DNA of 64,000 nt from contig CAWJQC010000007.1 in assembly GCA_963844965.1 (NCBI GenBank), positions 224,001-288,000 on the forward strand, given 5' to 3'. This DNA comes from an uncultured bacterium (GTDB lineage Bacteria; Patescibacteriota; Minisyncoccia; UBA6257; 2-01-FULL-56-20). Shown piece by piece: positions 11,162-59,296 of the stretch. Position numbers and translations under genes: made by a program. A model generated the notes under the pieces. That model was not told the DNA's origin, did not search any database, and was given only the letters and a program-made list of their open reading frames with translations. Within the stretch, counting starts at the first letter, position 1; each line of letters starts with the position of its first letter.

Positions 11162-11565
11162 ATGCCTCAGCGTGAAAAACCATTGATACTCGTCACCGAC
11201 GACGATAAGGACTACCGCGAAGCCGTTGTTCTGCAATTGCAGGCGGCCGGCTTTGACACCATCCAGGCAAAAGACAGCAAGGACTCAATTCAAAAAGCCA
11301 AGGAATCCAGCCTGATCTTATTCTTATGGACGTTAACATGCCGCCGGGTCTTAACGGCATTGATACCGCACTGGAGCTCAAAGAAACGCCCGAAACGAAG
11401 GATATTAAGATCGTTTTTCTGAGCGGTTTGGAGAATCCGTGGCCGCTTTTCGGCGGAGAAAGGGGAGACGTGAGCAGGGAAATGGGAATGGAGGATTACT
11501 TCATAAAGACGAAGGATTTCAGCGAACTGGTGGCGAAAATCAAGAAGATTTTGAACGTAACGTAG
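11162..11565 (+). pseudogene. Single-domain CheY-like response regulator receiver, frame broken by a 1-nt indel near 11298
   Basis: Two overlapping ORFs whose translations join into one receiver domain (LILVTDDD...KESS / PDLILMDVNMPP...). Confidence 0.65.
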
Positions 11566-11919: not shown

Positions 11920-13169
11920 ATGGCTGAATTAAAACGCGACGCCTCTTTTCTTAAAATAGAGATAGAAAAAGATCTCGCGCGGCAGGTGGACAAGGTCTCC
12001 GTCGTTTCCTTGGTTGACTTGCTGGTGGAGTACGCTTATATCTTGCGCGCTTCCGACATCCACATTCAACCCGAGGAAAATTCGTTGCGCATCCGTTACC
12101 GCATAGATGGTCTCCTCCAGGATATTTTCCAGAAGATGACCATTCGCAAGGACATCCAGCCCGAAATCATCAGCCGCATAAAAGTTCTCGCCGGCTTGCG
12201 CACTGACGAGCACCTTGCTTCGCAGGACGGGAGGATCAAGGTTAAGGTCAAGGATTTCGGCGAAATCAGCGTCCGTGTTTCCATCGTGCCGACGTACAAC
12301 GGGGAGAACGCCATTTTGAGGGTGCTTGCCGAAACGCAGGGATTTACCGTGAACGATTTGGGATTTTTGCCGAACGACCTGAAGAAAGTTACGCACGCCA
12401 TGACGAAGCCCTACGGTATGATCCTCGCGAACGGTCCGACCGGTTCCGGTAAGACAACGACCCTCTACACGATTTTAAAAACCTTGAACAAGCCGGATAT
12501 TTCCATAGTGACCATAGAAGACCCTATTGAGTACGCATTGCCGGGAACCTCGCAAATTCAGACCAACGCCGACATAGGATTCACGTTCGCGAGCGGTCTC
12601 AGATCAATTCTGCGCCAAGATCCTGAACATCATCATGGTGGGCGATAATCCGCGACGAAGAGACGGCGGGAATAGCGGTGAACGCGGCCCTGACCGGCCA
12701 CCTCGTGCTTTCAACTCTGCACACCAACGATTCAGCAACAACCTTTCCCCGGCTCATAGATATGGGTGTGCCGCCATTCCTCGTAGCTTCAACGGTTAAC
12801 GTGGCGATGGGCCAGCGTCTTGTCCGGATGATATGCCAGAAGTGTAAGCAGCCGCGTAATTTTAGCGAGATGGAAATAAAAAGTTTGGCGGAAATCATTC
12901 CGGAGTCGGCAAAATATCACGGCAAGTTTTTCATAGGGAAAGGATGCCCCGCCTGCAATGGAACCGGCTATATCAGCCGCACTGGCATACGCGAAGTGTT
13001 GGAAGTGAACGAGACAATCAGCCAGCTTATCATGAACCGCGCGAACGCCAAGCAGATAAAGGATGCTGCTGTCAAAGCCGGAATGACCACGATGACAGAA
13101 GATGCCTTGGAGCGCGCTTCCAAGGGAGTCACCTCCATTGAGGAAATTTTGCGCATTATACACGAGTAG
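11920..13169 (+). pseudogene. pilB: Type IV pilus assembly / type II secretion ATPase PilB/GspE, interrupted by two indels about 19 bp apart (near 12626 and 12645)
   Basis: N-terminal GspE N-domain, Walker A GPTGSGKTT; Asp box and the [13 protein letters not shown] His box lie in different frames; three frames must be spliced to recover DPDIIMVGEIRDEET. Confidence 0.8.
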
Positions 13170-19955: not shown

Positions 19956-21094
19956 TCATTGTCCGAGCGCGGGCAGGTATTCCGGTCCATAGGTGGCGGT
20001 AATGTCGCCGTCCGCGTCGTAGACATCCATCTTATAGTAGTATGGATCGTATAGCGTTTGGTCCAGGATTTTTATGGAGTAGGGACCGCCTGACGGCGGA
20101 TTTTCTTGCGTAAGCACCGCTAGCCACGGTCCGTTTTGGTCAGCCGAGCGCGAAACCACGAATTTCTCCGTTCCCAAGGGAAGGTTCTGCCAACCGATGT
20201 CAATATTGTTATCCATATGGTCTACCCAAAAATTCTCAGTTTGCGGCTGGCCGTAGCCCGAAATGCCGCCTTGCGGATTGTAATAGGGAATTCCGGACGG
20301 CTTTGGCGTAGGCGTCGGCGTCTGAGTTGGCGTCGTTGATGTCGGCGTTGGGGATGGCGATTGGCTTGGGGTGCCCGTGCTTTGCGTCGTTGATGATGGC
20401 TGCGTACTTGGAGGCGTCGTTGGCGGAGGAGTGTTGGTTCCCGTGGTCGGCGTCGGTGCCGTGGTAGATGGCGTGGATGTTGAAATTACCGTCGGCGTTA
20501 TGGGCGATGTCCAGAGAACGGTTTCTTCGGACGGTCCGCCGGTTTCGGTGCTTGAACCGGTGCCGGCGCCGTTATTTGTTCCGCTTGTGCCACTAGCAAC
20601 TGCCTCCACGTAATAAACGTACGTCTCCATTCCCCTCGCTTGTTTTGCCGAGTGAGATGGAAAAATTCCCGCTTTCTATGTCGCCTGAGAATATTCCGCC
20701 ATCTATGTTAATTCCGCCAGCCGTTCCTGCGCCGGTCGCGCCACCACCTCCCGTGCCCCCGCTGATTCCGCCGCCTTTACCAGAAACAATATCTTGCAGG
20801 TTAACGGTTTTCCAGAGCTCCCACTGCGTTGTCCCGGCCTTCGCGCGGTAGAATATTTATGCGTGCGGTGTTCGCCGGTATATTATCCCAGCGCATGATC
20901 AGGACATCCTCACCGCCGCTCCGCTGAATTTCTACGGTCAGTTTCGGTTCGTTGGGCTTGGCAACGGGCGTGACAGTTTCTTGGCGAAAAATCGTGAAAA
21001 TATCCTGTCCGGTGATTCTGTAGTATATGAAAGTAACGCTCGCAAGCCCGACGACAAAAAGGATGGCGAAGTAAATTTTGCTTTTTACTGTCAC
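19956..21094 (-). pseudogene. Membrane-anchored Gly/Thr/Pro-rich low-complexity surface protein; single gene spread over three frames (breaks near 20630 and 20830-20880)
   Basis: Signal-anchor ORF 20801..21094, a Gly-rich bridging frame, and the Thr/Pro-rich ORF 19956..20630 are contiguous only if two 1-nt shifts are allowed. Confidence 0.5.
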
Positions 21095-21172: not shown

Positions 21173-22334
21173 CTATTTTCTGGATTCCAGGTTCTCTATC
21201 AGCGCGATTTCCAAGGGTACAACCGCGAATGGGCTGTAGCGCATTTCGGAGTAGGCGCGGATGAGGGACTGGAGAAGTTTTACGGCGGATGCCGGTTCAA
21301 TAAGCGTGCCGAGTTGTTTGACTCTTTCTATCTCTTCGCCGGTCAACTCGCCGCGGAGCGCGGTTTCCGTGGCCGGACTTATCTTCAGCGCCAGAATTTT
21401 CCTTACATAATGGATTAGGTCTTTCGTGAATTGGGTCAAATTTTGCCCTTCTTCGTTAAGTTCCGCGAGATAGTTGATGCTTCCTTTGAGGTCTTTTTTT
21501 AAAATTAATTCCGCCAGCCCATCCACTTTTTTGAGGCCGACGCGGCCGGTGATTTCTTTCGGCCGCTGCCAGATCAATCCCGACGTGTTTTGCGGTCGGG
21601 ACTCCGACCCCGCCAGTGGCGGGCGTCGGAGTTTCCAATGAACTTATCTGGTCTAAGAGCGATTCGGCGTCGCGGAAACTTCCTTCCGCGGCGGCTGCGA
21701 TGAGCTCAAGCGCCGGTTTGTCAATCTGAATTTTTTCCGCTTTCGCCATCATCGCCAGTTTTTCCATGATCTTCGTTTTCGGAAGTTTTTTAAAGAGGAA
21801 ACGCTGAGTGCGCGAAACAATGGTCGCGGGCAATTTTTCGTATTCGGTCGTCGCGAGTACGAGAACGGCGTGCGCAGGCGGCTCTTCCAGGGTTTTGAGG
21901 AGCGCGTTAAAAGCGGGCGTCGTGAGCATGTGTACCTCGTCTATGATGTAAACTTTGTATTCGCCGGACGCCGGAGAGGTTCTGATGCTGTCTTTGAGGT
22001 TGCGGATCTCGTCAATGCCGCGGTTGGAGGCGGCGTCTATTTCAATGACGTCAAAAGAATTCTGCGCGTCAATTTCTTTGCAATGGCGGCATTCATTACA
22101 TGGTTCGCCAAGCTTTCGGAATTCGGCGTCGTCGCGGCGCTTCTCGCAGTTTAATAGCTTGGCGATGAGCCGCGCAGTCGTGGTTTTTCCGGTCCCACGC
22201 GAGCCGTAAAACAAATAGGCGTGGCCAAGCCGCCCCGCCTTTGCGGCGTTCTTCAGAATTTGCGCGTTCGTTTCCTGCCCAAAAGCTCGTCAAGTCTCTT
22301 TGGGTCGGTATTTGCGATAGAGGGCGAGTGCCAT
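21173..22334 (-). CDS. dnaX: DNA polymerase III subunit gamma/tau; frame disrupted by an in-frame TGA at codon 15 (22290-22292) and a 1-nt frameshift around 21580-21660
   Basis: MALALYRKYRPKET*RAFGQETNAQILKNAAKAGRLGHAYLFYGSRGTGKTT (conserved N-terminus and Walker A), DEVHML Walker B, SRTQ sensor; the C-terminal domains continue in another frame. Confidence 0.8.
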
Positions 22335-22382: not shown

Positions 22383-23798
22383 TTGCCAAACGCAGTCAAA
22401 TTTTTTAAAATTATATCGATGAAATTGATTTTATTGTGCGGTGCAATAATAACGGTTTTAGTCGCCGCCGTTTTTTTATTTTTGCCCTCGGATGAAGTGA
22501 TTGTTGTTGGCAACGGCGCAACCACCGGCTCGGCGATTGCGACAAGCACCGCCGTATCCTCAACCCTGCTTTCCGTGCCGGAGGCGCCGACTTCATCGCA
22601 AGCGGCCTTGAGTTATGCGACAAATTCCGCCTCGGCATCGTTTTCCGACATAGGGCCGCAGCAGCCGCTCGTGAATCCACCGACAGTCATGAAGGGTGTG
22701 TATATGACCGAATCGTCCGCGGGCTACGCTCCGAAAGTCAACTATATAATTGACTTGGCCAATAAGACCGAAATCAACGCTGTGGTCATAGATATAAAGG
22801 ATTACTCCGGTTATGTTTCCTATCGCACAACCGTTCCGGCGACAAAGGAAACTGGAGCCGAGGGAGAGATAAGAATCGCCCAACCGAACGCTCTGCTTAA
22901 AAAATTTCACGACGCGGGAATTTACGTTGTCGGAAGGATTACCGTGATGCAGGACCCTGTGCTGGCTAAAGCCCATCCGGAGTGGGCGCTTATAAACAAA
23001 ACAACAGGCAAGACATGGACTGATAATAATGGACTTGCCTGGATGGACCCTGCGGCGGAACCGGTTTGGGAATACAACGCGGCAATTGCCAATGACGCCA
23101 TCGCGCGCGGATTTGACGAGGTGCAGTTTGACTATGTTCGTTTCGCCTCCGATGGCGACCTCACGAATATCGGATATCCATACTGGGACGGGAAAACGGC
23201 CAAGCACACGGTTATAAAAAATTTCTTCGCATATCTGCGGGGGAATTTACCGGAAGCTAAACTTTCCGCCGACGTCTTCGGACTTACGACGGTTGACACT
23301 GACGACTTGGGCATCGGCCAGGTTATTGAAGATGCCTACAAATATTTTGATTACGTGTCGCCGATGGTGTATCCTTCCCACTATGCCCCCGGGTTTTTGG
23401 GCTATGCGAATCCGGCGAAATATCCATACGAGGTTATAAAATATTCAATGGACCATGCGCTCGCGCGGCTCAAGGCCGGTGAAGAGGTTACAGAAAACGT
23501 TTCTTCGACTTCGGCAACGTCCACGGCCACGGTTACGGTCAATGTGCCGTACCGGGCCAAGCTTCGTCCTTGGCTTCAGGATTTTGATTTGGGCGCGACC
23601 TACGACGCCACGATGGTGAAAAAAGAAATGCAAGCGACCTACGATGCTTTGCTGAATTTCATATCTACGCCACCCTCGATGATAACCGCAACTTCAACGC
23701 TTATAGAAGCTCCCGGCTCTTCGAATGCAGATTACGGCGGCTGGCTCCTCTGGGACCCGGCGAATATTTATACGGAAGGAGCGCTAAATAGTAAATAG
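22383..23798 (+). CDS. Secreted putative glycoside hydrolase (TIM-barrel, DUF4015/GHL10-like)
   Basis: N-terminal TM/signal, Ser/Thr-rich linker, VVIDIKDYSGYVSY and GIYVVGRITVMQD motifs; 471 aa. Confidence 0.5.
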   Translation: MPNAVKFFKIISMKLILLCGAIITVLVAAVFLFLPSDEVIVVGNGATTGSAIATSTAVSSTLLSVPEAPTSSQAALSYATNSASASFSDIGPQQPLVNPPTVMKGVYMTESSAGYAPKVNYIIDLANKTEINAVVIDIKDYSGYVSYRTTVPATKETGAEGEIRIAQPNALLKKFHDAGIYVVGRITVMQDPVLAKAHPEWALINKTTGKTWTDNNGLAWMDPAAEPVWEYNAAIANDAIARGFDEVQFDYVRFASDGDLTNIGYPYWDGKTAKHTVIKNFFAYLRGNLPEAKLSADVFGLTTVDTDDLGIGQVIEDAYKYFDYVSPMVYPSHYAPGFLGYANPAKYPYEVIKYSMDHALARLKAGEEVTENVSSTSATSTATVTVNVPYRAKLRPWLQDFDLGATYDATMVKKEMQATYDALLNFISTPPSMITATSTLIEAPGSSNADYGGWLLWDPANIYTEGALNSK

Positions 23799-23815
23799 GT
23801 ATAGCCAATATCAAA

Positions 23816-24550
23816 ATGGTTTACGAACTAAAAACCGAAAAGTTTTCCGGCCCGCTGGAAAAACTTCTTGAGCTTATTGAGGCCAAACAGCTTACCATCA
23901 ACGAAATCAGCTTGGCCGAAGTTACGGAAGATTTTTTGAAGTATCTTGAAGCGCTTACGGACGCCGATATGCGCCTTGTGGCCGACTTTATTGCGGTCGC
24001 GAGCCGGCTTGTTCTCATCAAGTCAAAGTCGCTCTTGCCGGACCTCAGTTTAACGAGCGATGAGGAGTCGGACATCAAGGACCTGGAGAAACGCCTTAAA
24101 ATTTATCAGGAGCTGAAGCCGGTGATGAAAATGCTCGATACTCTTTGGAAAAAGGCGGGGCGCGAATTCAGCCGGCCGTATTTTTTGGAACAGGGCGCGC
24201 CGCTCGCGGGCGGCGCCAAGGTGTTTTATCCGGGCGAAGGCCTGGAAATTCAGGCGCTTTTCGGGGCACTTCACAAGATTTTTGAAAGTTTCGTGAATCT
24301 GGAGCTGGAAACCAAATCCATCAAGGAAAAAATCGTCACCATAGAGGAAAAAATAGCCGAAGTCGTTGAACGGCTGGCAAAGGAAGGCGAGTCAACATTC
24401 AAAAATCTTTCTTCGGCGAAATCGCGCTCGGAAGTCATCATAATTTTTCTCGCGATACTACATCTTGCCCGCGAGCGGCTCATCGCACTCGAGCAATCCG
24501 AAAGATTTTCTGATATAATAATCAAGCGACAAGCGGCAGGTAACAAGTGA
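23816..24550 (+). CDS. scpA: Segregation and condensation protein A
   Basis: 244-aa kleisin-like protein; immediately followed by scpB. Confidence 0.8.
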   Translation: MVYELKTEKFSGPLEKLLELIEAKQLTINEISLAEVTEDFLKYLEALTDADMRLVADFIAVASRLVLIKSKSLLPDLSLTSDEESDIKDLEKRLKIYQELKPVMKMLDTLWKKAGREFSRPYFLEQGAPLAGGAKVFYPGEGLEIQALFGALHKIFESFVNLELETKSIKEKIVTIEEKIAEVVERLAKEGESTFKNLSSAKSRSEVIIIFLAILHLARERLIALEQSERFSDIIIKRQAAGNK

Positions 24551-24551
24551 C

Positions 24552-25163
24552 ATGGAAAATTTGGATAAAAAAATAGCGGAACTGGAGGCTTTGCTCTTCA
24601 TCCATGGAGAGCCGCTCTCGGTGAAGAAAATCGCGCCGATTTTGGAACTTAAGATTGAAGAAGCGAAAGAGGTTGTTGAGGAACTCAAGAAGCGTCTGGA
24701 ATCGGACGAGAGGGGATTGGCGTTGGTTTCCGACGAAGAGCGCGTTCAACTCACGACAAAACCGCAGTTCGGAAAAATCCTGGAGAAGTTCATCAAGGAA
24801 GAGCTTTCGGAGGATTTGACGCCGGCGAGTTTGGAGGCTCTGGCGATCGTGGTGTACTTTGCGCCGATTTCGCGCAGCCGACTTGAGTATTTGCGCGGAG
24901 TAAACTCCATTTTCATTTTGCGGAGCCTGCTTTTGCGTGGCCTGGTTGAGAGATATCCGGATCCCGCCCGACCGAACGCTTTCCTCTACAAGCCGACGTT
25001 CGATTTGCTGAAGCATCTTGGTCTCAAAAACCGCGAAGAACTGCCAGAATTCGGAAAATTCCAGGATTTGCTCAAAAGGTTTGAATCGTCGGGCGGTGTT
25101 GCCGTACCGCAGCAACCGCCCGAAGCGAGCTACGGCGACGTACAAAGCGAGTTGACGCAGTAG
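24552..25163 (+). CDS. scpB: Segregation and condensation protein B
   Basis: Tandem winged-helix ScpB signature (LEALLFIHGEPLSVKKI...); adjacent to scpA. Confidence 0.8.
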   Translation: MENLDKKIAELEALLFIHGEPLSVKKIAPILELKIEEAKEVVEELKKRLESDERGLALVSDEERVQLTTKPQFGKILEKFIKEELSEDLTPASLEALAIVVYFAPISRSRLEYLRGVNSIFILRSLLLRGLVERYPDPARPNAFLYKPTFDLLKHLGLKNREELPEFGKFQDLLKRFESSGGVAVPQQPPEASYGDVQSELTQ

Positions 25164-28021: not shown

Positions 28022-28390
28022 ATGCGCAGGAATGACGCTGGTTCCGGCTTGTCCAAAGTATTAATTGTGGTAGCTGTAGTAGCTGCGATTTCATTCATCA
28101 TTGCGATGGTTGTCCTTGAATATCAATCACATGCCAGGCCCGATGTGGAGTTGAGCGGCTGGGTCAGGAACGTAAACATTGTTTATGACTCTACTATTGT
28201 CGCTGTTGAGAAAGACGGCGACATCACGCCGCAGTCATATGAGCTGATCGGCAAACACTCTGAACTTTGGAAGGGCGAGCATGTTTGGCTAAGGCTTCAC
28301 TTCCGTCCTTACAGAGAGGAATACGAAATCGTCGGCTTCAAGCGACTCGGCCCCGACGACAAATCCAGGCCGTTGATAGTAAGTCATTGA
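28022..28390 (+). CDS. Hypothetical membrane-anchored protein
   Basis: AAGGAGG RBS; N-terminal TM helix; 122 aa (the ORF track extends it upstream without RBS support). Confidence 0.45.
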   Translation: MRRNDAGSGLSKVLIVVAVVAAISFIIAMVVLEYQSHARPDVELSGWVRNVNIVYDSTIVAVEKDGDITPQSYELIGKHSELWKGEHVWLRLHFRPYREEYEIVGFKRLGPDDKSRPLIVSH

Positions 28391-28403
28391 GTTTTCGCGG
28401 AAA

Positions 28404-28436
28404 AGCCCCACCATTTGGTGGGGCGGTTCTTTTGCG
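28404..28436 (+). terminator. Rho-independent terminator
   Basis: CCCCACCA-TTTG-GTGGGGCGG followed by TTCTTTTG. Confidence 0.65.
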
Positions 28437-28460
28437 GCGCATATTTTTATAAAAAAAGAG

Positions 28461-28486
28461 CCCTCGCCGGTTCCGACCGGCGAGGG
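28461..28486 (-). terminator. Rho-independent terminator for the minus strand (CCCTCGCCGG stem with an A-run on plus = U-run on minus)
   Basis: Perfect 10-bp stem; AAAAAAAG immediately 5' on the plus strand. Confidence 0.5.
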
Positions 28487-28515
28487 GTTTGGAGAATTGA
28501 AAGTGAGCGGGGTGC

Positions 28516-28644
28516 TCAAGAAGCGTGGACGATGTAGTCCTTATGACTGGAATACGGCGCCAGCCCGAAGGGCGCAGCGGCTCCGTGAGTGAACCAGAAC
28601 GCCCTTTTGGAACTTTGAACATTGTTCTCGGCCATCCTCAACAT
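28516..28644 (-). CDS. Candidate small protein (42 aa, MLRMAENNVQSSKRAFWFTHGAAAPFGLAPYSSHKDYIVHAS)
   Basis: Not in the ORF track (under 60 aa); GGAAAGG RBS-like sequence upstream; stop sits directly before the minus-strand terminator. Confidence 0.25.
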   Translation of the reverse strand: MLRMAENNVQSSKRAFWFTHGAAAPFGLAPYSSHKDYIVHAS

Positions 28645-36342: not shown

Positions 36343-36685
36343 ATGCTAAAAAAGATTTTAAAATCCAGGATAGTCAGCTCTATTTTTTTGCTGGATCCTG
36401 CTTTTGGTTCTGGGCGGAACGATCTGGGTGTATTTCGCCCTGCGTCATATCGCGCCGCCGCTGATTCTTCATTTCAACAACCTCGCCGGGATTAACCAGA
36501 CCGGGAATTTGGCGGATTTATTGGAGATCGGTGCCACCGGCATTGTTTTCGTGCTCGTGAACTTTTTTATAGCGTTGGAGCTGGAGAATAGGGACGCGTT
36601 CGGCGGCAAGCTTCTGGCCGCGGCGACCCTATTCCTCGCGATTTTGATTTTCATTGGCTTTGCCGCTATAATTTCTGCAAATTAG
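36343..36685 (+). CDS. Small polytopic membrane protein; ATG at 36343 and body (from 36404) are in different frames, joined if the T7 run at 36383-36389 were T6
   Basis: ORF track body 36404..36685 starts on TTG; an upstream ATG ORF ([15 protein letters not shown]...) ends shortly after the T7 run; removing one T fuses them. Confidence 0.4.
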
Positions 36686-37174
36686 TATCGATGCTAATAT
36701 ACGAATGAGTACTAATGATACGAATAACCGAAACAGGAAACTTATTTATCCGGAATTATCATATACGATTGTCGGCATTTGCTTTGAAGTTCATAATCAG
36801 CTCGGGAGATTTGAGAGGGAAAAACAATACGGGGATTTGACAGAAAAGAAGTTAAAAGAGTCCGGTATTTCATACGAGCGCGAACGCGAGATTTTGAAAA
36901 CGGGAAACCGGGTTGATTTTTTGATTGATGGTAAGATCATCTTAGAAGTCAAAGCAAGAAAACTTGTTTTAAAAGATGATTTTTATCAACTGCAGCGCTA
37001 TCTTCAGGCTGCTGGTAAAAAGCTCGGTTTGATAGTAAATTTTAGAAACCGCTATTTGAAACCAATCAGGATTATCCGCATTGATACTGACGCAAGGAAA
37101 AAATTTCAATAACTTGCAAAAATTGTCATTATAGATTAGTATAATTAGCATCATTAGTATATTAGCATCGATAC
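36685..37174. mobile_element. 490-bp cassette bounded by 18-bp perfect terminal inverted repeats (GTATCGATGCTAATATAC / GTATATTAGCATCGATAC), carrying a GxxExxY-family gene
   Basis: TIRs at 36685-36702 and 37157-37174 with an imperfect extension (TACTAATGAT); the right TIR ends 1 nt before the rplU ATG. Confidence 0.45.
36705..37112 (+). CDS. GxxExxY-family protein (PD-(D/E)xK nuclease-like)
   Basis: [19 protein letters not shown] motif and overall 135-aa architecture typical of the GxxExxY family. Confidence 0.7.
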
Positions 37175-37175
37175 C

Positions 37176-37488
37176 ATGTCTAAATTTTCGATAATCGAGA
37201 CGGGAGGAAAACAATATAAAGTTTCCGCCGGTCAAAAAATTAAGGTGGAAAAACTGAACGCGGAGGCGGGCGATTCTTTTGTTTTTGACAAGGTTTTGCT
37301 TGTTGTGGATGGCGAAAAAGTTGAGATTGGCACGCCATATATCGCCGGCGCGAAAGTGGAAGCCAAAGTTTTGCGCCAAGCCCGCGAACGCAAGAAAATC
37401 GTTTTCAAATACCATTCCAAAACGAGATATAAAAAAGAAAAAAGGACACCGACAACATTTTACGGAGGTGTTAGTGGAGAAAATTTGA
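37176..37488 (+). CDS. rplU: 50S ribosomal protein L21; frame shifts within the A6-G-A6 tract at 37431-37443 and the true C-terminus (KKKKGHRQHFTEVLVEKI) is in the +1 frame
   Basis: N-terminus MSKFSIIETGGKQYKV is canonical L21; the conserved C-terminal tail is only found in the overlapping ORF ending at 37488. Confidence 0.85.
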
Positions 37489-37545
37489 TTTGTTATAATT
37501 AATCGCAGTAATCTTTATACGGGCCGCTTTCGGGGGTGATGTGGC

Positions 37546-37800
37546 ATGTCCGAACTTGTCTATGACCTGGAGGTCGCTTTTGTGCTGCTCGTGATAGCAG
37601 CTTTGTTCTTTGCCGCCGCTACTATTTTTTTGGCTTATGCCTTACCGAGCCACACCGCAAGAATGCATAAAAAAGTCAACGGCTGGTTGCAGAACGATAG
37701 AGTTCTCGGGTCAATTTCCGCCCACTATCGTTTTTTGGAAAAAAAATTGAAGGATTTTTCCCGCACCATTCATTTGCCAAGAATGCCTCGCCGCAAATGA
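37546..37800 (+). CDS. Hypothetical small membrane protein
   Basis: 84 aa, one TM helix, basic C-terminus. Confidence 0.4.
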   Translation: MSELVYDLEVAFVLLVIAALFFAAATIFLAYALPSHTARMHKKVNGWLQNDRVLGSISAHYRFLEKKLKDFSRTIHLPRMPRRK

Positions 37801-39894: not shown

Positions 39895-42288
39895 ATGGCC
39901 ATTTATCTCGTAATTTCATTTTCGATCGGCGCCGTCTTGGGCGTTTGCGTTTATTTTATAGGGAGATTTTTCGTCAGGCGCAGGTTATTTGAATCCCTGA
40001 ATTACGCGCTGTTTTTGGTCAAGCTCCCGCGGGAGGCGGTTCCCGAAAAAACCGAGAGTGCTGAAGGGCGTGATTTCAAAGTTCAACTCGCCCACTTTGA
40101 GCAGCTCTTGGGCGGTCTCCTGGCCATAAAGAAACCGGTTGTTTTTGAAGTGGCCGTTCCGCACCTCGGCGAGGAGATACATTTTTACATGTCGGTTCCG
40201 AAGTTTTCTGGCGAGACCGCTACGAAGCTGATCCAGGGTTTGTGGAGCGGCGCAAGCGTTGAGCTCGCGCCGGACGATTTTAATATATTTAACGTTAATG
40301 GTGCGGCTGCGGCGGCGTACTTGGAGCAAAAAGAAAGTTACGCCTTGCCGGTGAGAACTTACAGCGAACTGGGGATTGACTCTTTTGAATCCATCGTCGG
40401 CGCGTTTTCAAAGATAAAGGAAATAGGTGAAGGAGCCGCTTTGCAGTTGGTTTTCCGTCCGGCTCCCGCCAAGCTGAAGAGAAAAGTGCACGGTTACATA
40501 AACCTGCTCAAAAAGGGGGTGCCGCTCAAAAAAGTTCTGAATTACGAGTTTCCGGTTGGCATTTCGGATATCGGAGAGATATTCAATCCGAAGACGAAGG
40601 AGAAAATACAGGAAGAGAAAAGCGAACGCGTGATTGACGAAGAAGCCGTGAAAGCGCTCACGGCGAAGATCACGAAGCCGCTTTTTGAGGTCAACGTGCG
40701 GCTCGTCGCCTCGGCGCCGTCGGAATTCCAGGCGAAGGATATCCTGGACGGTATGACGGCTGGTTTCAGCCAGTTTGCCGCACCGCTCAGGAACAGTTTC
40801 AAGATTATAAGGGCGCGCAACCCTAAGGGTCTGATTCGCCAGTTTATTTTCCGAAATTTTGACGCCGGCAAGAAGATGGTGTTGTCAAGCGAAGAAATCG
40901 CGAGCATTTATCATTTGCCAATCTCTTCCACCGAGACGCCGAAAATAAAATGGCTGAAGTCAAGGGAGGCGCCGCCGCCGCCGAATCTGCCCGCGACAGG
41001 CGTTCTCGTGGGCGAGAGCGTTTTTCGTGGTCAGAGAAAACCCATTTATATCACGGACGCGGATCGCAGACAGCACGTGTATATTATCGGTCAGACCGGC
41101 ACGGGCAAAACGACCTTGATCGGCGACATGGTGCTTGAAGATATCAAAAGCGGCAAAGGAGTCGCGATAATTGACCCGCACGGCGATCTGGTCGCGAACG
41201 CCCTGAGCTTCGTTCCCAAGGAGCGCATTGACGACTTGATTTATTTCAATACGGGAGATTTAGAACGTCCGCTCGGTTTGAATATGATTGACTACAATTT
41301 CAACCGCCCGGAAGAAAAGACGTTCATTGTGAACGAGATGCAGGGCATTTTCAACAGGTTGTTCGTCGCCGAGACCATGGGGCCGATGTTTGAACAGTAC
41401 ATGAGGAACGCTCTCCTGCTTCTCATGGAAGATATGCCTAACGAGCCGGCGACCCTGATAGAAGTGCCGCGGGTTTTTACGGACACAGAGTACCGCATGC
41501 GCAAGCTTGAAAGGATCCAGAACCCGGTGGTCGTTGACTTCTGGGAAAAAGAAGCGGTAAAAGCCGGCGGCGAAGCGTCATTGGCGAACATGACGCCCTA
41601 CATCACCTCCAAGTTCAACAATTTTATCGCCAACGACTATGTCCGCCCGATTATCGGGCAGGCGAAGTCGGCGTTCAACTTCAGGCAAGCGATGGACGAA
41701 GGAAAAATTTTGCTCATAAACCTGTCAAAAGGAAAGATAGGGGATATCAACGCCGGACTTCTCGGCATGATATTCACGGGAAAACTTTTGATGGCTGCTC
41801 TTTCGCGCGTGGACGTGCCGGATATTTCTAAACGCCGCGACTTTTATCTTTATATAGACGAGTTCCAGAACTTCACGACCGATTCCATTTCCACGATCCT
41901 CGCCGAAGCGCGGAAGTACCGTCTGAATTTGACTATGGCCCACCAGTTCATCGCCCAGCTTACGGAGAAAATACGCGATTCCGTTTTCGGCAACGTCGGT
42001 TCACAGCTCGTCTTCCGCGTTGGCGCGCAGGACGCGGAATTTCTCGTCAAGCAGTTTGAACCGACGTTCAATCAGAACGATCTGTCAAATATAGACAACC
42101 TGAACGCCTACGCGAAGATTCTCATAAACGGCATGACCTCAAAGCCGTTCAATTTGAAAATTCTGGGCACTTCCTGGAACCACGGCGACCGCGAACTCGC
42201 GGAGAAGCTTAAAGAGTATTCGCGCACGAAGTACGGCATGGACCGGCACGTAATAGAAGAGGAAATTTACAGAAGGTTGAGAGAATAA
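39895..42288 (+). CDS. TraD/TraG/VirD4-like type IV coupling protein-type P-loop ATPase with an N-terminal TM anchor
   Basis: HVYIIGQTGTGKTT Walker A followed by AIIDPHGDL and YFNTGDLERPLGLNMIDYN (T4CP-like DPKGE / NPL region); Walker B LYIDEFQNF; 797 aa. Confidence 0.6.
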   Translation: MAIYLVISFSIGAVLGVCVYFIGRFFVRRRLFESLNYALFLVKLPREAVPEKTESAEGRDFKVQLAHFEQLLGGLLAIKKPVVFEVAVPHLGEEIHFYMSVPKFSGETATKLIQGLWSGASVELAPDDFNIFNVNGAAAAAYLEQKESYALPVRTYSELGIDSFESIVGAFSKIKEIGEGAALQLVFRPAPAKLKRKVHGYINLLKKGVPLKKVLNYEFPVGISDIGEIFNPKTKEKIQEEKSERVIDEEAVKALTAKITKPLFEVNVRLVASAPSEFQAKDILDGMTAGFSQFAAPLRNSFKIIRARNPKGLIRQFIFRNFDAGKKMVLSSEEIASIYHLPISSTETPKIKWLKSREAPPPPNLPATGVLVGESVFRGQRKPIYITDADRRQHVYIIGQTGTGKTTLIGDMVLEDIKSGKGVAIIDPHGDLVANALSFVPKERIDDLIYFNTGDLERPLGLNMIDYNFNRPEEKTFIVNEMQGIFNRLFVAETMGPMFEQYMRNALLLLMEDMPNEPATLIEVPRVFTDTEYRMRKLERIQNPVVVDFWEKEAVKAGGEASLANMTPYITSKFNNFIANDYVRPIIGQAKSAFNFRQAMDEGKILLINLSKGKIGDINAGLLGMIFTGKLLMAALSRVDVPDISKRRDFYLYIDEFQNFTTDSISTILAEARKYRLNLTMAHQFIAQLTEKIRDSVFGNVGSQLVFRVGAQDAEFLVKQFEPTFNQNDLSNIDNLNAYAKILINGMTSKPFNLKILGTSWNHGDRELAEKLKEYSRTKYGMDRHVIEEEIYRRLRE

Positions 42289-42642
42289 AAACCACCGCCT
42301 TAGCGGTGGCACGGGAGCCGTCCTCTGTTCTAGTCTTTTTTTTGCGGTTTTTCTTTTCCGGTTTTTCCCGGAAAAGAGAAAATTTGCCGAACGCATTTTG
42401 CCGTTGCCCTCCTGAACGAAGATGTTGAACTTCAGGCCCAGCGATTCTTTGCTGTCCACGAAAGTTCTGACCTTGCGAGCGTCGCCGTCCACAAGCCAAA
42501 CGTCGTGTTTCCCTCCTTCGTTGTCAGGGACGCCGCGAAAAGCGTTTTCTTCTGGAAACTCTCTGGAGAAGAACGTATTAGTATGTGCGTTAAGCGGTTC
42601 CACAAACCATCTATACTGGCGGCCTTTCTCCTCTTTAGCCAA
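42139..42642 (-). CDS. Hypothetical ORF; only the N-terminal ~85 codons lie in intergenic space, the rest reads through a hairpin and overlaps the T4CP gene 3' end
   Basis: ORF track entry; the C-terminal half has a basic low-complexity composition suggesting read-through. Confidence 0.25.
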   Translation of the reverse strand: MAKEEKGRQYRWFVEPLNAHTNTFFSREFPEENAFRGVPDNEGGKHDVWLVDGDARKVRTFVDSKESLGLKFNIFVQEGNGKMRSANFLFSGKNRKRKTAKKRLEQRTAPVPPLRRWFLFSQPSVNFLFYYVPVHAVLRARILFKLLREFAVAVVPGSAQNFQIERL

Positions 42643-42820
42643 CTGGCACCTCCTTGTTGTTGATCCTGCTGATTTGAACTGGTTTGATAGTAGAGGAAAT
42701 ATTTCCTCCGGTCAACTGCGCGGGGCATTCCGCGGGGAGCGGAGAACGCGGCCCTGGTCCGTTTGCTACAATCTTGCGGCAGTAATATTATTTAAAGCAA
42801 CATCTGAAAACCTCAAATAA

Positions 42821-45784: not shown

Positions 45785-46087
45785 TTATGCCTCCTTTCGC
45801 TTAGCGGTGCATCTTTTCAATTTTCGCAAGACCATCGCTAGTGCGCAATAAGCATTTACATCGGTCTTTTTCGCGAGTTCAAGGAACGCTTCCGCTTCTT
45901 TTATCCAGCGGGGAAATTTAGCGCGATTGGGATTTGATCGCGGTATGAGCGGGGCGCGCCTTATCGTGTCATACTTGTCGGCAATGCCAAGGAGTTTTAT
46001 TCCCCGGCTTCCGTTGCGGACAAAATCATTGAAGAACCGCGCCTTGAGGATTTTCTTCTCGGCTTCGGTTTCGTGGGCTTCTGGCAT
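45785..46087 (-). CDS. C-terminal half of an HD-domain (p)ppGpp-hydrolase-like (SpoT/Mesh1-type) protein
   Basis: IKLLGIADKYDTIRR resembles the IKLADRLHNMRTL region; own AAGGAG RBS; starts 8 nt after the stop of the N-terminal half. Confidence 0.5.
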   Translation of the reverse strand: MPEAHETEAEKKILKARFFNDFVRNGSRGIKLLGIADKYDTIRRAPLIPRSNPNRAKFPRWIKEAEAFLELAKKTDVNAYCALAMVLRKLKRCTAKRKEA

Positions 46088-46092
46088 CCGAG

Positions 46093-46419
46093 TTACTCCT
46101 TTAACGATATCGTGTGTTTCGGGACGAATAGGTGCTCAATCGTTTCCAGCGCAACGCCGCCGTCTTCCACGACGTCGTGCAGAAGGGCGGCGGCAAGCAG
46201 ATGGTAATCGCGGACACGGAACGTTTCAAAGAGAAAATTGAACACGGCGAGCGGATGGACGAAGTACGGATATGATTCAATTCCGAATTTTTTCTGCCCC
46301 CGATGCGCCGCTTCAGCCATGTTGTATGCCCGCCAGAGCGCCGATTGTTCGGCGCAGGTAAGTTGCCTGGCGTTCTTCATGAATCGGCGCTTTGCGGCTT
46401 TGAGCGATGGGTAACGCAT
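46093..46419 (-). CDS. N-terminal half of an HD-domain (p)ppGpp-hydrolase-like protein
   Basis: AHRGQKKFGIESYPYFVHPLAV...LLAAALLHDVVED matches the RelA/SpoT HD hydrolase N-terminus; ends at TAA in the middle of the domain. Confidence 0.55.
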   Translation of the reverse strand: MRYPSLKAAKRRFMKNARQLTCAEQSALWRAYNMAEAAHRGQKKFGIESYPYFVHPLAVFNFLFETFRVRDYHLLAAALLHDVVEDGGVALETIEHLFVPKHTISLKE

Positions 46420-50705: not shown

Positions 50706-51717
50706 CTATAATTTGAAAACCATTCTGGCGAACGTATAAAGAATTGCGGCTATAATGGCAGCCATGGGAATGGTTAAAACCCAGACCCAGATAATTCGCA
50801 GAGTCACGCCCCATTTTACGGCAGAAACGTGCTTGGCCGCGCCGACTCCAGAAATAGCACCGGTTATGACGTGTGTGGTTGAAACCGGCACGCCCAGATA
50901 AGTGGCGAAGAAAATGCTGATGGCGGAAGCCGACTCGGCACAGACACCGTCAATTGGTCGGAGTTTCGTGATTTTTTGGCCCATGGTTTTGACAATGCGC
51001 CAGCCGCCGGAAAGAGTGCCCATTCCAATGGCCGCGTGCGCCATAAGCACGACCCAGAGCGGAATTTTGAAAGTGCTGATAAGCCCGGCAGAAAACAAGA
51101 GGCTCGTGACAATGCCCATGGTTTTTTGTGCGTCGTTGCTGCCGTTACCCAGGCTGTACGCCGCGGCCGAAACAAGTTGCAGGCGCCTTGACCAAATATT
51201 CACCGGTCCCGGCGAAGCTTTAGTTTTATACAAAACCCAGAGAGTAGCGCTGATAAAGATCATGCCCAGGACCATGCCGATGATCGGCGCGAGAAAAATA
51301 AATATGATCGTTTTGTTCCATCCTTGCCAGATGATTACGTTTAGTCCCGCCTTGGCTACGGCCGCGCCGGCGTAACCACCGATCAGCGCGTGTGAGGAAC
51401 TAGTAGGCAACCCCAGCCGCCAAGTGATGATATTCCAGATAATTGCGCCGAGAAGCCCCACTAAAATCACATAAGGAGTTACTACGTTGATGTCTATGAG
51501 ACCCTTGCCGATGGTGGAAGCGACTGTAGTGCCGAAGATAAGGAAGGCAACGAAATTAAAAAATGCCGCCCAAACTACGGCTTGGCGCGGCGAGAGCACG
51601 CGGGTGGATACGATGGTAGCAATGGAGTTGGCCGCGTCGTGCATGCCGTTCGTGAAGTCAAAGATGCACCGCTACCAAAATGATCCCTATGACGAGCAAC
51701 AGGCTATAGCTCAGCAT
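50706..51717 (-). CDS. pitA: Inorganic phosphate transporter, PiT family; the N-terminal ~20 codons are in a different frame (1-nt indel near 51662-51668)
   Basis: MLSYSLLLVIGIILVAV (frame 1) then IFDFTNGMHDAANSIATIVSTRVL (PiT signature) in the ORF-track frame. Confidence 0.75.
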
Positions 51718-52468: not shown

Positions 52469-54491
52469 ATGAAGAATACTTCCTGGACGGTGGGTGTTTT
52501 GGTGGTTTGTGTTTCTGTAAGTTTGCTTGCGGCGTCAAGCGCTTACGCGGCTACGCCGACGCTTTCGCTCGCGGTGACGAGCGGGGATTCTGTGCAGATA
52601 AACGTGATCGGCGATTCGAATTTTCCGGTCGTGTTTTATTACAATGTCGGCAGTTCTTCCGGAACGAACACAACGACGCTCGGTAGTACGAACTCCAGCG
52701 GCGTTTTTTCAACAACGATAAGCACGGGCGCGTACGCGATAAACTCCAGCTATCCGGTATATGTCGTAGTGGATGGTCAGCAGTCAGCTACACAAACCTG
52801 GCCTTACGGCGCCAGTACTTCCTCGGGTACAAGCGGTACGCCAGTACTCAGCCAGACAAGCGTTACGGTCGGTATCGGGCAGTCAGTGACCGTGACTTCG
52901 CAGGGAGGCAGCGGCATCTATTTGGTGTCCAATTCCAATTCTTCTGTGGCCGCCGCTTACGTATCTGGGACACAGGTTGTTGTTACCGGAAGCCAGCTGG
53001 GTTCAACGACAATGACAATCTGTTATGTGGGTACCGCTTCCAATTGCACGAATTTGTATGTGAATGTGCAGAGCGGAACCGTGCAGGCGCTCACGTTCAG
53101 CCCGAACAACATTTCCTTATCGGTCGGTGGCAGTCAATCTGTGACCATAAGCGGCGGGAGTGGAACGTATAGTTTGTCTTCCAATTCAAACTCCAGCGCC
53201 GTTTCCGTGAATTTATCGGGAAACACGCTTACGGTGACAGCCATCGCGGCCGGGAGCGCCAATATAACGGCATGCGACACGTCGGGAAATTGTAGTGTCT
53301 TATATGTGACGGTGGGCGGAAGCTCAACAAGCGGTTCCTTGTCTTTCAGCCAGACGAATCCGTCTATAGCGGTCGGACAGGTTATAAGCGTGAGTGTTTA
53401 CGGCGGAAGCGGCTATTACGTGTCCGCTAACACGAACTCCGGCATCGCCTCGCAAACGCTGAATGGCAACACACTCTCAATCTCTGGTCTGGCAGCCGGA
53501 GCGACGACGATCACCGTATGTTCGGCGGTGAACGGCTGCGGCTACCTTTATGTCACCGTCGGTTCGTCATCCGGCACGAGCCAGACAATTACTTTTAGCC
53601 AGACGAATCCGTCCATAGCGGTCGGACAGGTTATAAGCGTGAGTGTTTACGGCGGGAGCGGGTATTACGTAACGGGCAACACGAATTCCAGTGTCGCTTC
53701 GCAAGCCCTTAATGGGAGCATACTTTCCATCTCCGGATTGGCAAGTGGCGCCACGACTATCACGGTATGTTCCGTGGCTAATGGCTGTGGTTCGATTTAC
53801 GTCACGGTCGGTTCGTCGTCGGGCTCGAGTATGGCCATCACCTTTGGCACGACCAATCCCACTATTACAACGGGGCAAAGTATGAACATCTCGCTTTCTG
53901 GCGGTTCCGGTTATTTCGTTTCGTCTAATCCAAGTACGAATATTGCGCAGGCAAGCGTTACGGGCAATACGCTTGCGCTCTATGGCGTGGGCGTCGGCTC
54001 CGATTCGCTTACGATTTGCGCGAGTTCCGGCGGCTGCAACACGCTTTACGTCACAGCTGACAAGCGTGACGACCGTTCCGACCACCACGCAGACACAGCA
54101 AACAGTTGTTTCGAGCGCTTGGATAACCGAGATCCAGACAATGCAGACCCAGCTCACAAATATCCTCGCCCAAATCCAAACTTTACAAAGTAACCTTGCA
54201 AATCTTCTTACGCAAGTTACCGCCGGCGCGCAAAGTCCAAGCGTAAGTGGCACGACGACCGCGCAATCCAGCGGCTATAAATTCTACAGCCCGCTCTCGC
54301 TTGGCTCGAGCGGCGCAGACGTCACGGCATTGCAGACCCTCTTGGCCGCGAAGGGATATTACACTGGTTCCATAACCGGTTACTACGGTACGGCGACGAT
54401 GGACGCGGTGATGGAATACCAGACGGCTCATGGTATCACGCCGCTCGGCAACGTGGGTCCCGCCACCCGCGCGGCGCTGAACGCGGAATAA
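52469..54491 (+). CDS. Large secreted surface protein: signal peptide, multiple Ig-like repeats, Thr/Gln-rich coiled-coil linker, C-terminal peptidoglycan-binding domain; 1-nt frameshift near 54050
   Basis: Tandem near-identical ~80-aa repeats; C-terminal GADVTALQTLLAAKGYYTGSITGYYGTATMDAVMEYQ matches PG_binding_1, but only in the overlapping ORF 53943..54491. Confidence 0.7.
53320..53830 (+). repeat. Near-identical ~246-bp tandem duplication encoding Ig-like domains
   Basis: Blocks starting about 53335 and 53580 share more than 90% nucleotide identity. Confidence 0.7.
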
Positions 54492-55692: not shown

Positions 55693-56316
55693 AAAGTTTA
55701 TATAAAAAAGTGGCATTGGAATTAGCGGAAAAGGCGGGTAAAACTATGCTTGCTTATTTTACATTGGGGATGAAAAAGAATTGGAAAGAAGACAACACCC
55801 CCGTTACCGCAGCCGACATTGAAATTAACAAACTCGTTATCAAAACCATCCGCAAGAATTTTCCTGATCACGACGTGCTTGGCGAAGAGTTGAGCGATAT
55901 GAAAAGAGGAAGCGAGATGGTGTGGGTGTGCGATCCGATTGACGGCACAATCCCGTTTTCTCATGGGATTCCAACGAGCACCTTCTCGCTTGCGCTTGTT
56001 TGGCGCGGGAAGCCGATTATGGGCGTTGTTTATGACCCATTTCTCAAAAGAATGTTTTTTGCAGAGAAAGGCGGAGGCGCATTTCTCTGTAGCAAGAGAA
56101 TATACGTGAATTCGAAAAAAGAATTGCGGAGCTCTCTCGTAGGTATGGAGGTATGGAGGGAGGCACAATTCAATTTATCCCCGCTTCAGATAGCCATGAA
56201 GAACGAGGGCGCAAAAATAATCATTCCTTGCTCGACGGCGTATATGGGAATGCTTGTTGCGTGTGGCGAAGCCTCGGCAAGCATTTTTCCGGGATCTACC
56301 GCGCACGATGGCGCCG
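55689..56316 (+). pseudogene. Inositol monophosphatase-family protein (SuhB-like), 3' end truncated by the IS insertion
   Basis: WVCDPIDGT metal-binding motif; sequence is homologous up to the WDxAAG-equivalent (HDGAV) and is then replaced by IS-derived sequence from 56317. Confidence 0.7.
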
Positions 56317-56376
56317 TGAAAAGGACCCTTTTCTTTAGACAGTCATTCGACGATTTTTTCGCCGATTTTTTTCACT

Positions 56377-57162
56377 TTACCACGCCGCTAACTGCTCGGC
56401 AAACACGACTGGCGGCATCTTGAGGGCGGAGTGGATCCGCGTGTGGTTGTACTGCCACAAGGTGCTGTAGATCTCCGCCACGAGCTCGCCGAAGGTCCCG
56501 AACCGGTTGGGATCACCGAGGTCAATCTTGAACTTGTCATAGAACGATTCCTGGTAGCCGTTTTCCCATGGGGCACCGGGCCGCGACCGCGAGATCGTGA
56601 TGCCACAGTCCCCCAGTGTATCGGTGAACGCTCGTGCCTTGTACTCGCTGCCGTTGTCCGAATGGAAGATGACCGGATGCGGATGGTGGAAAAGCGCGTT
56701 GGCCAGGGTCTGTATCGTGAGGGGCGATCCTTTCCGCAACGCCACATGGACGCCCATCAATCGTCTCGTGAAAAGATCGAGTATCGTGGACACGTACACT
56801 TTCTTGCCGCGATACAGGAACTCCGTGAAATCGGTTGCCCAGACGTGGTTCGCGTACGAGGGCATGATGGCAAGTAAGAGGTTCGGAAAGGCCCGCGATG
56901 CCTTTGATTTCCGGTATTTCCTGCCTCGCCTCCGGTACGGCCTTATGCCGAAGATTCGCATGACGCGCTGCGCTCGCGGACGGCTCACGCCCAGAGCTTG
57001 TCCCAAGCGCCGGGAACCGTATGCCGGATGGCGCTGCAATTCTTCTTCCATGCGGATCTTGAGCGCCCAATCTTTCTTGTCCTGCCGTGATACGTAGTAG
57101 AGCGATGCCCGCGAGACGCCCATGGCCCGCGCCATGGCGGACTTGTTCCGCTTTTCCGTCAA
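56377..57162 (-). CDS. IS3-family transposase OrfB (DDE integrase core)
   Basis: rve-type DDE motifs including HSDNGSEY; in the -1 frame relative to orfA at CAAAAAAAG. Confidence 0.85.
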   Translation of the reverse strand: MTEKRNKSAMARAMGVSRASLYYVSRQDKKDWALKIRMEEELQRHPAYGSRRLGQALGVSRPRAQRVMRIFGIRPYRRRGRKYRKSKASRAFPNLLLAIMPSYANHVWATDFTEFLYRGKKVYVSTILDLFTRRLMGVHVALRKGSPLTIQTLANALFHHPHPVIFHSDNGSEYKARAFTDTLGDCGITISRSRPGAPWENGYQESFYDKFKIDLGDPNRFGTFGELVAEIYSTLWQYNHTRIHSALKMPPVVFAEQLAAW

Positions 57163-57422
57163 TTCTTTTTTTGGGCCTGGGAGAGCTTCACGGTGAGCTC
57201 GCCCACCACTTCAAACAGCTCCCTGTTCTGCTTCTGGAGACGGCTGAACTCGCCCCAGGAAGGGACGCCCGATGCTCCTGCGCCTAGCCAATTGTAGATG
57301 GTGGACTCGTGCAAACCGTGGTCCTTCGCAGCCTGCGCTACGGGGACTCCTTCTTCCTTCACCCGGCGGAGGATGTCCGCCTTCACTTCCTTCGCAATCC
57401 GATGCCCTTTTTTGTTGCTCAT
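57159..57422 (-). CDS. IS3-family transposase OrfA (HTH)
   Basis: Helix-turn-helix (AQAAKDHGLHESTIYNW); ends LSQAQKKN at the slippery site. Confidence 0.85.
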   Translation of the reverse strand: MSNKKGHRIAKEVKADILRRVKEEGVPVAQAAKDHGLHESTIYNWLGAGASGVPSWGEFSRLQKQNRELFEVVGELTVKLSQAQKKN

Positions 57423-57436
57423 GACACAATGGTAGT

Positions 57437-57769
57437 TTGTTTCGACCTTTGTGTCTAAATTACGGGGTCCGGGTCAAAACAAAAGAGGTCGTCAGAGTCC
57501 TCTCGAAGGCCGGCTTCACGCAACAGGAGATACTTGATGCCATCTGGAACGCCGACTTTGTAAAAGATGAGAACGGCGGAGCCGTCGTGAACGCCATGTA
57601 CGAAGCAAAGATTCCGGTCGCCGATATCGTCGGAGTGCTTATGAGGGAAAAGATCGATCCCGACGACCTCGACGGCGAAATGGGCGGAGAAGAAGTTGAC
57701 ACGCGCACCCGCGTTGAGATTCTCCATTCGCTCTTTGAGGCGATTGACGGCGAGAAAGAGACAGCTTAA
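57437..57769 (+). CDS. Hypothetical acidic small protein; annotated start lies inside the IS terminal repeat
   Basis: 110-aa ORF; true start is probably downstream of 57476. Confidence 0.3.
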   Translation: MFRPLCLNYGVRVKTKEVVRVLSKAGFTQQEILDAIWNADFVKDENGGAVVNAMYEAKIPVADIVGVLMREKIDPDDLDGEMGGEEVDTRTRVEILHSLFEAIDGEKETA

Positions 57770-58631: not shown

Positions 58632-59296
58632 ATGAAAAAATCATCACTTATAGCGGTGGTCGCGGTTGCCGTCGTTGCCGTCATCTCCGCCGTTCTCATG
58701 TTCAGGAACGCGCCGGCTCCGCCGGAGACCTCGCCGGTCGCGCCACAGAATCTTCAGCCCGCAACCGCGCCATCCGCGCCTTCGTCGAGCGCGGATCGCA
58801 AACCCAAACGCAAAACATGGAACATTTAATTACGCTCAGAACCACCATGGGCGATATCCAATTCGGGACCTACGACTCGGACGCTCCGAATACGGTGAAC
58901 AACTTCATCACGCTCGCGCAAAAAGGATTTTATAACAACGTCATTTTTCACCGCGTCATCAAGGGATTTATGATACAAGGCGGCGACCCTACGGGAACCG
59001 GCACGGGAGGTCCGGGGTACTCCTTTGCGGACGAACTCAATCCCGCGACGCCTTCTTACCAGGCGGGATACAAGAAGGGCGTGGTCGCGATGGCGAACGC
59101 CGGACCGAACACGAACGGCAGCCAATTTTTCATCATGCTTGCCGATTATCCGCTGGACCATAACTATACGATCTTCGGCAAGGTGGTGGCCGGACAGGGC
59201 GTCGTGGACGCGATCGGCGATCTTCCGACCGACGCGAACGACAGGCCTCTGCAACCGCCGGCGATAAAGAGCGTTGTCGTGGAAGTTGCGAAGTAG
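58632..59296 (+). CDS. ppiB: Secreted cyclophilin-type peptidyl-prolyl cis-trans isomerase; signal peptide plus Pro/Ala linker (58632-58829) is in a different frame from the catalytic domain (58817-59296)
   Basis: Catalytic-domain motifs FHRVIKGFMIQGGDP and NGSQFFI; the upstream ORF encodes a typical signal peptide and ends 13 nt into the domain ORF near an A-rich tract. Confidence 0.75.

Follow-up and report, generated by a model that had tools for sequence, protein, structure and literature searches.

Fourteen single-base frame breaks in a 64-kb stretch of a Patescibacteria MAG contig, including one in rplU, are best explained as consensus indel errors

The gene for ribosomal protein L21, rplU, does not read through in a single frame in the DNA analysed here (the window, meaning the whole 64-kb stretch). 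From the ATG at 37176, frame 0 runs as MSKF...KYHSKTRYKKEKRTPTTFYGGVSGENLICYN and ends at 37502 with a non-homologous tail, and the conserved L21 C-terminus, KKKKGHRQHFTEVLVEKI, lies in the +1 frame with its stop at 37486-37488. An earlier note had described this break together with others in the window, had read them as consensus errors biased towards homopolymers rather than as biology, and had named transcriptional slippage as the alternative to be excluded. The question raised by the locus is therefore whether an essential gene is really interrupted in this organism, is rescued during its expression, or is interrupted only in the deposited sequence.

Frame breaks were located with a codon-usage HMM trained on long ORFs, by means of a seven-state Viterbi segmentation of the window, and each same-strand frame switch was inspected using three-frame translation, Pfam, and homologues. 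A total of 14 one-base frame breaks in 11 genes was found (Table 1), i.e., one per about 4.6 kb or about 0.02% of bases, a density far above that of a finished bacterial genome. Ten of them are insertions and four are deletions, they occur in mixed sequence contexts, and no motif common to the 14 breaks was found. Several breaks accumulate in the same gene in the case of dnaX (three), pilB (two), and the surface protein (two). According to the HMM, coding potential is undiminished on either side of each break. At two further positions, 28382 and 42394, possible breaks were noted for which no homologues or Pfam matches were found. The window has a G+C content of about 50%, and the best matches of its genes are in Patescibacteria MAGs (Liptonbacteria- and Paceibacteria-like).

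Not every switch proposed by the HMM corresponded to a break. The switches at 9474/10254 (an ABC permease, then an isochorismatase) and at 23793/24525 (ScpA, then ScpB) were rejected as transitions between separate genes, as was the one at 17156, where a pilin-like gene is an adjacent or overlapping separate gene. The switch at 57172/56892 was rejected as the programmed frameshift between orfA and orfB of an IS3 element.

Table 1. Genes with one-base frame breaks in the window and near-identical Logan contigs aligned to it.
Feature	Window positions	Strand	Run	Observation
Response-regulator receiver gene	11162-11565	+		1-nt deletion at about 11300-11310 (AAGGAATCCAG)
pilB/GspE-type ATPase	11920-13169	+		two 1-nt insertions, 12622-12631 and 12641-12651
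Surface protein	19959-21094	-		two 1-nt insertions, about 20845-20856 and 20622-20635
dnaX	21173-22334	-		insertion 22290-22304; deletion 22274-22284; insertion A2 to A3, 21548-21563
Small membrane protein gene	36343-36685	+		directly upstream of rplU; ATG at 36343; 114 aa when repaired
T7 run in small membrane protein gene	36383-36389	+		probable 1-nt insertion site, T6 expected
rplU (ribosomal protein L21)	37176-37488	+		first A run minus one A gives a 103-aa frame
rplU break	37431-37443	+		A6-G-A6, versus A5-G-A6 in L001; 1-nt insertion, first A run 37431-37436
HD_4-domain gene	45785-46419	-		1-nt deletion at 46124, GG to G
pitA (PHO4 family)	50706-51717	-		1-nt insertion 51657-51675 (GCGGTG[C]ATC), outside runs
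Ig-repeat/PG_binding_1 protein	52469-54491	+		1-nt insertion at about 54047-54071
Membrane-anchored cyclophilin (PPIase)	58632-59296	+		1-nt deletion at about 58788-58798 (AGCGCGGATCG)
Contig L004	12638-14615		ERR10755942	without the extra T at 12646; pilB V G E I R D E E T A in frame
Contig L086 (ScpA contig)	23296-24578		ERR10755942	1283 nt, 100% identical; no break covered
Contig L001	36425-38593		ERR10755942	A5-G-A6, intact 103-aa L21
Contig L003	44817-46254		SRR18214601 (different run)	GG at 46124, HD gene intact
Contig L002	51706-53337		ERR10755942	no break covered; stops about 30 nt before reaching the pitA break

In rplU, the frame switch must fall in TAT AAAAAA G AAAAAA GG (37428-37445), which bears out the earlier placement of the break inside A6-G-A6 and of the conserved C-terminus in the other frame. 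The repaired 103-aa product matches the Pfam profile Ribosomal_L21p in one stretch (2-99/99). Moreover, rplU was uninterrupted in 22 out of 22 Patescibacteria loci from GTDB representatives, which encode products of 95-106 aa with RY+KKKGHRQ in frame. The small membrane protein gene changes to the +1 frame between SSIF and LLLVLGG, where T7 is the sole long run, so that the frame change claimed at this tract is confirmed, with T7 as its probable site. Six Patescibacteria relatives align in one frame over residues 1-114 of the repaired protein (tblastn, MAFFT), and because the alignments extend over all 114 residues, the break is real and not a mis-chosen start codon. In the relatives, the homologue lies mostly within about 100 nt upstream of rplU.

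A syntenic 21-kb locus in a related genome (L085, GCA_040960625.1) carries intact versions of dnaX (386 aa), pilB, and a 530-aa surface protein. When the proteins of this locus were compared with the window by tblastn, frame switches were detected in these three genes only, and each of the other homologues gave one uninterrupted match. The pilB match runs in frame 1, then continues for 7 aa, and then proceeds in frame 3; the repaired product matches Pfam T2SSE at 3-370/370. In dnaX, where the frame switch was also seen by tblastn, the first two indels, which lie about 20 nt from each other, compensate in frame (+1/-1) and enclose a TGA stop, and the repaired 386-aa product aligns to an intact 386-aa homologue (P0011) with 100% coverage and 89% identity. 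The homologue of the surface protein is the 530-aa Big_7/fn3 protein, whose tblastn HSPs fall in frames -1, -2, and -3. Alignment to the L085 DNA gives ATT[C]TAC and TG[G]GAG as the insertion sites, with positions good to plus or minus a few nucleotides and an identity of only about 62-66%. The break previously reported for this protein was thus confirmed, at two sites, which lie outside runs.

The remaining junctions were spanned by Pfam profiles or homologues. In the response regulator, a -1 frame change occurs between KAKE and QPDLILMD, and the repaired product matches Response_reg in one stretch (1-111/111). The repaired pitA product matches PHO4 at 1-350/350, and two PitA homologues (P0131 and P0146) align ungapped from residue 1-2 across the repaired junction. 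In the Ig-repeat protein, the C-terminal PG_binding_1 domain (repaired residues 613-669) lies in the +1 frame; since neither frame has a stop between 53886 and 54190, the insertion site is approximate. The breaks that the earlier note listed in dnaX, pilB, the response regulator, pitA, and the Ig-repeat protein were all recovered in this way. The PPIase break stands as well, but not its attribution to an A tract at about 58805. In P0253, the closest homologue, the N-terminal anchor is the same and is followed by ...SSSAGSQTQTQNMKHLITL, and because of this reading the junction is placed between SSSA in the upstream frame and GSQTQTQ in the downstream frame, about 15 nt upstream of the tract. 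Overall, Pfam profiles span the junctions of L21, REC, T2SSE, and HD_4, homologues span those of the small membrane protein, PPIase, and pitA, and the evidence for the Ig-repeat protein junction consists only of the domain in the other frame. The break in the HD_4-domain gene, where the Pfam match of the repaired product crosses the junction, is additional to those listed earlier.

Sequences nearly identical to the window were sought among Logan contigs by exact look-ups of 20 window ORF/start-codon candidates, few of which had Logan copies. Five short contigs, 99.5-100% identical, were retrieved by exact-protein look-ups of intact neighbouring ORFs (Table 1). They cover 3 of the 14 break sites, and at all three the indel is absent and the gene is intact. 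The contig covering rplU (L001) is 99.77% identical to the window over 2170 nt by blastn, with a gap exactly at 37431-37443, and the 3' end of rplU and the next 1.1 kb are identical in both. This contig is the only one on record for the identical 103-aa L21, just as the source contig is the only one for the 108-aa frameshifted product. The contig covering the HD_4-domain gene is 99.86% identical over 1439 nt, and its sole gap is at 46124. The T7 run has no near-identical coverage, as L001 begins at 36425, 36 nt downstream of it.

The same contigs also give an indication of the quality of the reads. Their alignments to the window, 8502 nt in total, show 5 single-base gaps and 15 mismatches, and three small clusters account for 12 of the mismatches. 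One contig (L004) starts with 8 mismatches against the window in 37 nt, beside the pilB break, which represents strain-level variation. Contigs from ERR10755942 have their own 1-nt gaps at about 36535 and 52810, which break ORFs that the window has uninterrupted. In three cases (contig ends at 36425, 12638, and 51706), the distance from the end of a Logan contig to a break site is 20-36 nt. These gaps and ends suggest that the ERR10755942 contigs derive from a noisy or heterogeneous read set, and it may be the one from which the source assembly was made. A literature search on runs ERR10755942 and SRR18214601 found no paper.

Other searches yielded little. Exact look-ups of guessed repairs (five for the response regulator and four for pitA) gave no match, the junction residues not being reliably guessable and Logan contigs tending to stop at such sites. 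A homologue search with a chimeric query of six repaired segments returned PitA word matches only, and nothing useful. A pattern scan of metagenome contigs for the rplU flanks with a variable A-run length gave no match, and a scan of genome contigs found no conspecific, the best match having 72% amino-acid identity.

The proposed association of the breaks with homopolymers holds only weakly and in part. Runs of at least 6 bases occupy 1.2% of window positions and contain 2 of the 14 breaks, against 0.17 expected (binomial P = 0.012); these are the A6 of rplU and the T7 of the small membrane protein gene only. With runs of at least 3 bases (18.8% of positions), 4 of the 14 breaks are included versus 2.6 expected, a difference that is not significant. 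The other 12 breaks are located in non-repetitive sequence or where a base occurs 1-3 times in a row, and the alignments to L085 DNA likewise show most indels at runs of only 2-3 bases or outside repeats. Conversely, the window contains 124 runs of 6 or more bases, the longest of 8, and two of them coincide with a detected break. Hence, the errors seem to be enriched in long runs, yet most are not homopolymer errors. The 10:4 excess of insertions is also unlike the typical nanopore signature of homopolymer deletions.

From these comparisons of sequence, we infer that the frame breaks are very probably errors of sequencing or assembly, of one base each, in the deposited consensus. The earlier judgement in favour of consensus error over biology is thus upheld, with all three covered sites intact in near-identical contigs and the relatives examined uninterrupted. 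The scatter of the breaks over 11 unrelated genes, in both directions and sometimes several to a gene, likewise has the character of noise. The eleven breaks outside these contigs would have the same cause as the other three. The source is a Patescibacteria/Paceibacteria-like MAG contig of 331,718 bp, the single contig (NCBI and ENA) to which exact look-ups assign the predicted proteins of the window. The 1-nt indel errors in its consensus would most likely have arisen from noisy reads at modest depth, from strain-level polymorphism, or from both. The true rplU would read ...TAT AAA AAG AAA AAA GGA CAC... (Y K K K K G H) and encode an ordinary 103-aa L21, and the organism's genes would be intact, with no need for recoding, slippage, or pseudogenisation.

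Gene-fragmenting indels that are partly linked to homopolymers have been documented in long-read assemblies (PMC12007338). The pattern found here resembles the consensus errors of long-read or low-coverage assemblies (Kastor, IDEEL-type tests) in that unrelated genes are split by 1-nt indels, and those of the published long-read case in that the split genes are otherwise conserved and intact in references and the link to homopolymers is partial (PMC12007338). It differs in direction, with 10 insertions and 4 deletions in the window, whereas that assembly is dominated by deletions (PMC12007338), and in that some of the window breaks coincide with strain-polymorphic patches.

The practical value of this result lies in quality control, and it has no biological significance. 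The public record of the 331,718-bp contig holds roughly one frameshift error per 4.6 kb, and the contig needs polishing or frameshift correction before use. Bogus products, namely the 108-aa L21, whose C-terminus is false, and a 159-aa PPIase that lacks the membrane anchor, are already cluster representatives in protein collections. Pseudogene counts, completeness estimates, and gene-loss inferences drawn from this genome would be inflated.

Among the alternatives, it is improbable that the indels are real mutations, due to recent pseudogenisation or to deleterious alleles of one strain, that were faithfully assembled. Pseudogenes can be tolerated in reduced genomes, such as those of the CPR. 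The strain variation in the first 37 nt of L004, beside one break, also speaks for real alleles, as do the Logan contig ends close to three break sites, which would reflect read heterogeneity there. Since strain polymorphism is real at some sites, an individual break could indeed be a variant allele. Nevertheless, the affected genes include essential and presumably single-copy ones, rplU once and dnaX three times, and contigs 99.8-99.9% identical are intact at 3/3 testable sites. Furthermore, in the genes compared with a homologue the changes are solely 1-nt indels, with no nonsense codon or larger deletion in any of them, none of the breaks is followed by decay of the sequence, and in dnaX the compensating pair of indels encloses a stop. 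A mixed situation, in which real polymorphism of length in the population underlies a minority of the breaks and consensus error the rest, is very improbable; its best candidate would be a T6/T7 on/off switch in the small membrane protein gene.

Rescue of the rplU break, and perhaps of others, by transcriptional slippage or programmed ribosomal frameshifting is extremely unlikely. The position of the rplU break in A6-G-A6, next to a gene that breaks at T7, is what makes such a rescue conceivable, together with its precedent in reduced-genome bacteria (PMC3017870). In that precedent, the rescued frameshifts occur in the very AT-rich genomes of endosymbionts, within poly(A)/poly(T) tracts, of which many reach at least 9 bp, and for some of the frameshifts conservation extends across populations and species (PMC3017870). 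The rate of insertion during transcription climbs exponentially with run length (PMC5574713). The case of rplU resembles those of Buchnera and Blochmannia in that the bacterium has a small genome, the gene is essential, and the frameshift falls where A-rich DNA encodes lysines. It differs in that the tract is A6 (T7 in the neighbouring gene) and not 9 or more, the G+C content is about 50%, and the frameshift is not conserved, since the 99.8%-identical contig lacks it and so do all 22 relatives. To bring rplU back into frame, moreover, one A would have to be lost or two gained, and not the common +1 insertion. The twelve other breaks lie outside runs and lack a slippery motif. Consequently, the slippage alternative advanced earlier is not supported: for rplU it is as good as excluded, and for the remaining breaks it is implausible.

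Programmed frameshifting, of which the +1 CUU UGA C of prfB and the -1 A AAA AAG of IS3 and dnaX are known forms, would likewise produce adjacent ORFs in different frames that specify one protein. Two such cases were detected in the window. The prfB gene has CTT TGA C at 3313-3319, a genuine programmed frameshift, with the PCRF and RF-1 domains in the downstream frame, and in the IS3-family transposase A AAA AAG (57165-57173) lies in frame with orfA and leads to an rve-domain orfB in the -1 frame. No canonical slippery sequence, stimulator, or conservation was found at the 14 junctions, where such signals would have been seen, given that the prfB and IS3 motifs were detected in the same window.

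Finally, phase variation, by which the T7 tract or the breaks of two surface proteins would be genuine on/off length polymorphisms, is scarcely credible: the tract does lie near codon 15, early in the coding sequence of a membrane protein, and the start of a Logan contig 36 nt past it is consistent with heterogeneity in length among the reads, but T7 is short for a contingency tract, relatives do not conserve the encoded residues as a repeat, the surface-protein breaks are outside runs, and these breaks need no explanation of their own, since a dozen equivalent ones occur in housekeeping genes of the same window.

Two of the frame changes in the window are genuine recoding sites. In prfB, which encodes RF2, a short ORF0 (21 residues) precedes the main frame, and CTT TGA C at 3313-3319 is the classical signal for programmed +1 frameshifting; this frameshift is to be left out of the error count. 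The second is the programmed -1 frameshift of an IS3-family transposase, whose orfB overlaps orfA in the -1 frame and in which the canonical heptamer A AAA AAG (57165-57173), read in the orfA frame, is located within an A7 run. A search for terminal inverted repeats of at least 14 nt within 56200-57700 found none around this element.

Features of the window and sites of Logan contig gaps or mismatches
Feature	Window position	Strand	Description
prfB (RF2)	3253-4429	+	PCRF and RF-1 domains
Gap or mismatches in L001	~36525-36535		L001 position ~101-111
PDDEXK_3 ORF	36705-37112		between small membrane gene and rplU (interval 36685-37174)
P0009	37176-37502		108-aa L21, false C-terminus
Hypothetical membrane protein	37546-37800	+	84 aa, directly after rplU
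HD_4-domain gene	45785-46419	-	1-nt deletion at 46124
Gap or mismatches in L002	~52810		L002 position ~527
IS3-family transposase	56380-57473	-	orfA HTH_Tnp_1, orfB rve
P0252	58820-59296		159-aa PPIase without membrane anchor

A 1-nt deletion splits the HD_4-domain gene, where the window has G and L003, a Logan contig of run SRR18214601, has GG. This site was absent from the list in the earlier note. Codon-model segmentation detected two more same-strand frame switches, at 28083-28523 and 42142-42711, in ORFs with no Pfam match and no homologue in the fetched loci; these could be extra indel errors or merely weak gene calls.

The Logan contigs of run ERR10755942 (L001 and L002 among them) carry 1-nt gaps and mismatch clusters of their own, which break ORFs that are open in the window, and contig ends (36425, 12638 and 51706) lie 20-36 nt away from window break sites. 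These gaps, clusters and nearby ends suggest that the reads are noisy or heterogeneous at exactly these sites. Two mistaken proteins from the source contig, P0009 and P0252, serve as cluster representatives in the protein collection.

Downstream of rplU, the next gene encodes a hypothetical membrane protein, and not L27 (rpmA), commonly the next gene after rplU; tblastn against the fetched loci of relatives detected no homologue of this protein, its sole match being L001. Upstream, the PDDEXK_3 ORF is flanked by a 24-nt inverted repeat, 96% complementary (36685-36708 and 37151-37174), and bracketed by a second, 16-nt arm pair, with a G+C content of 0.44 in this interval versus about 0.51. Since rplU lies directly downstream of the small membrane gene in two relatives (L009 and L005), the intervening segment looks like an inserted cassette.
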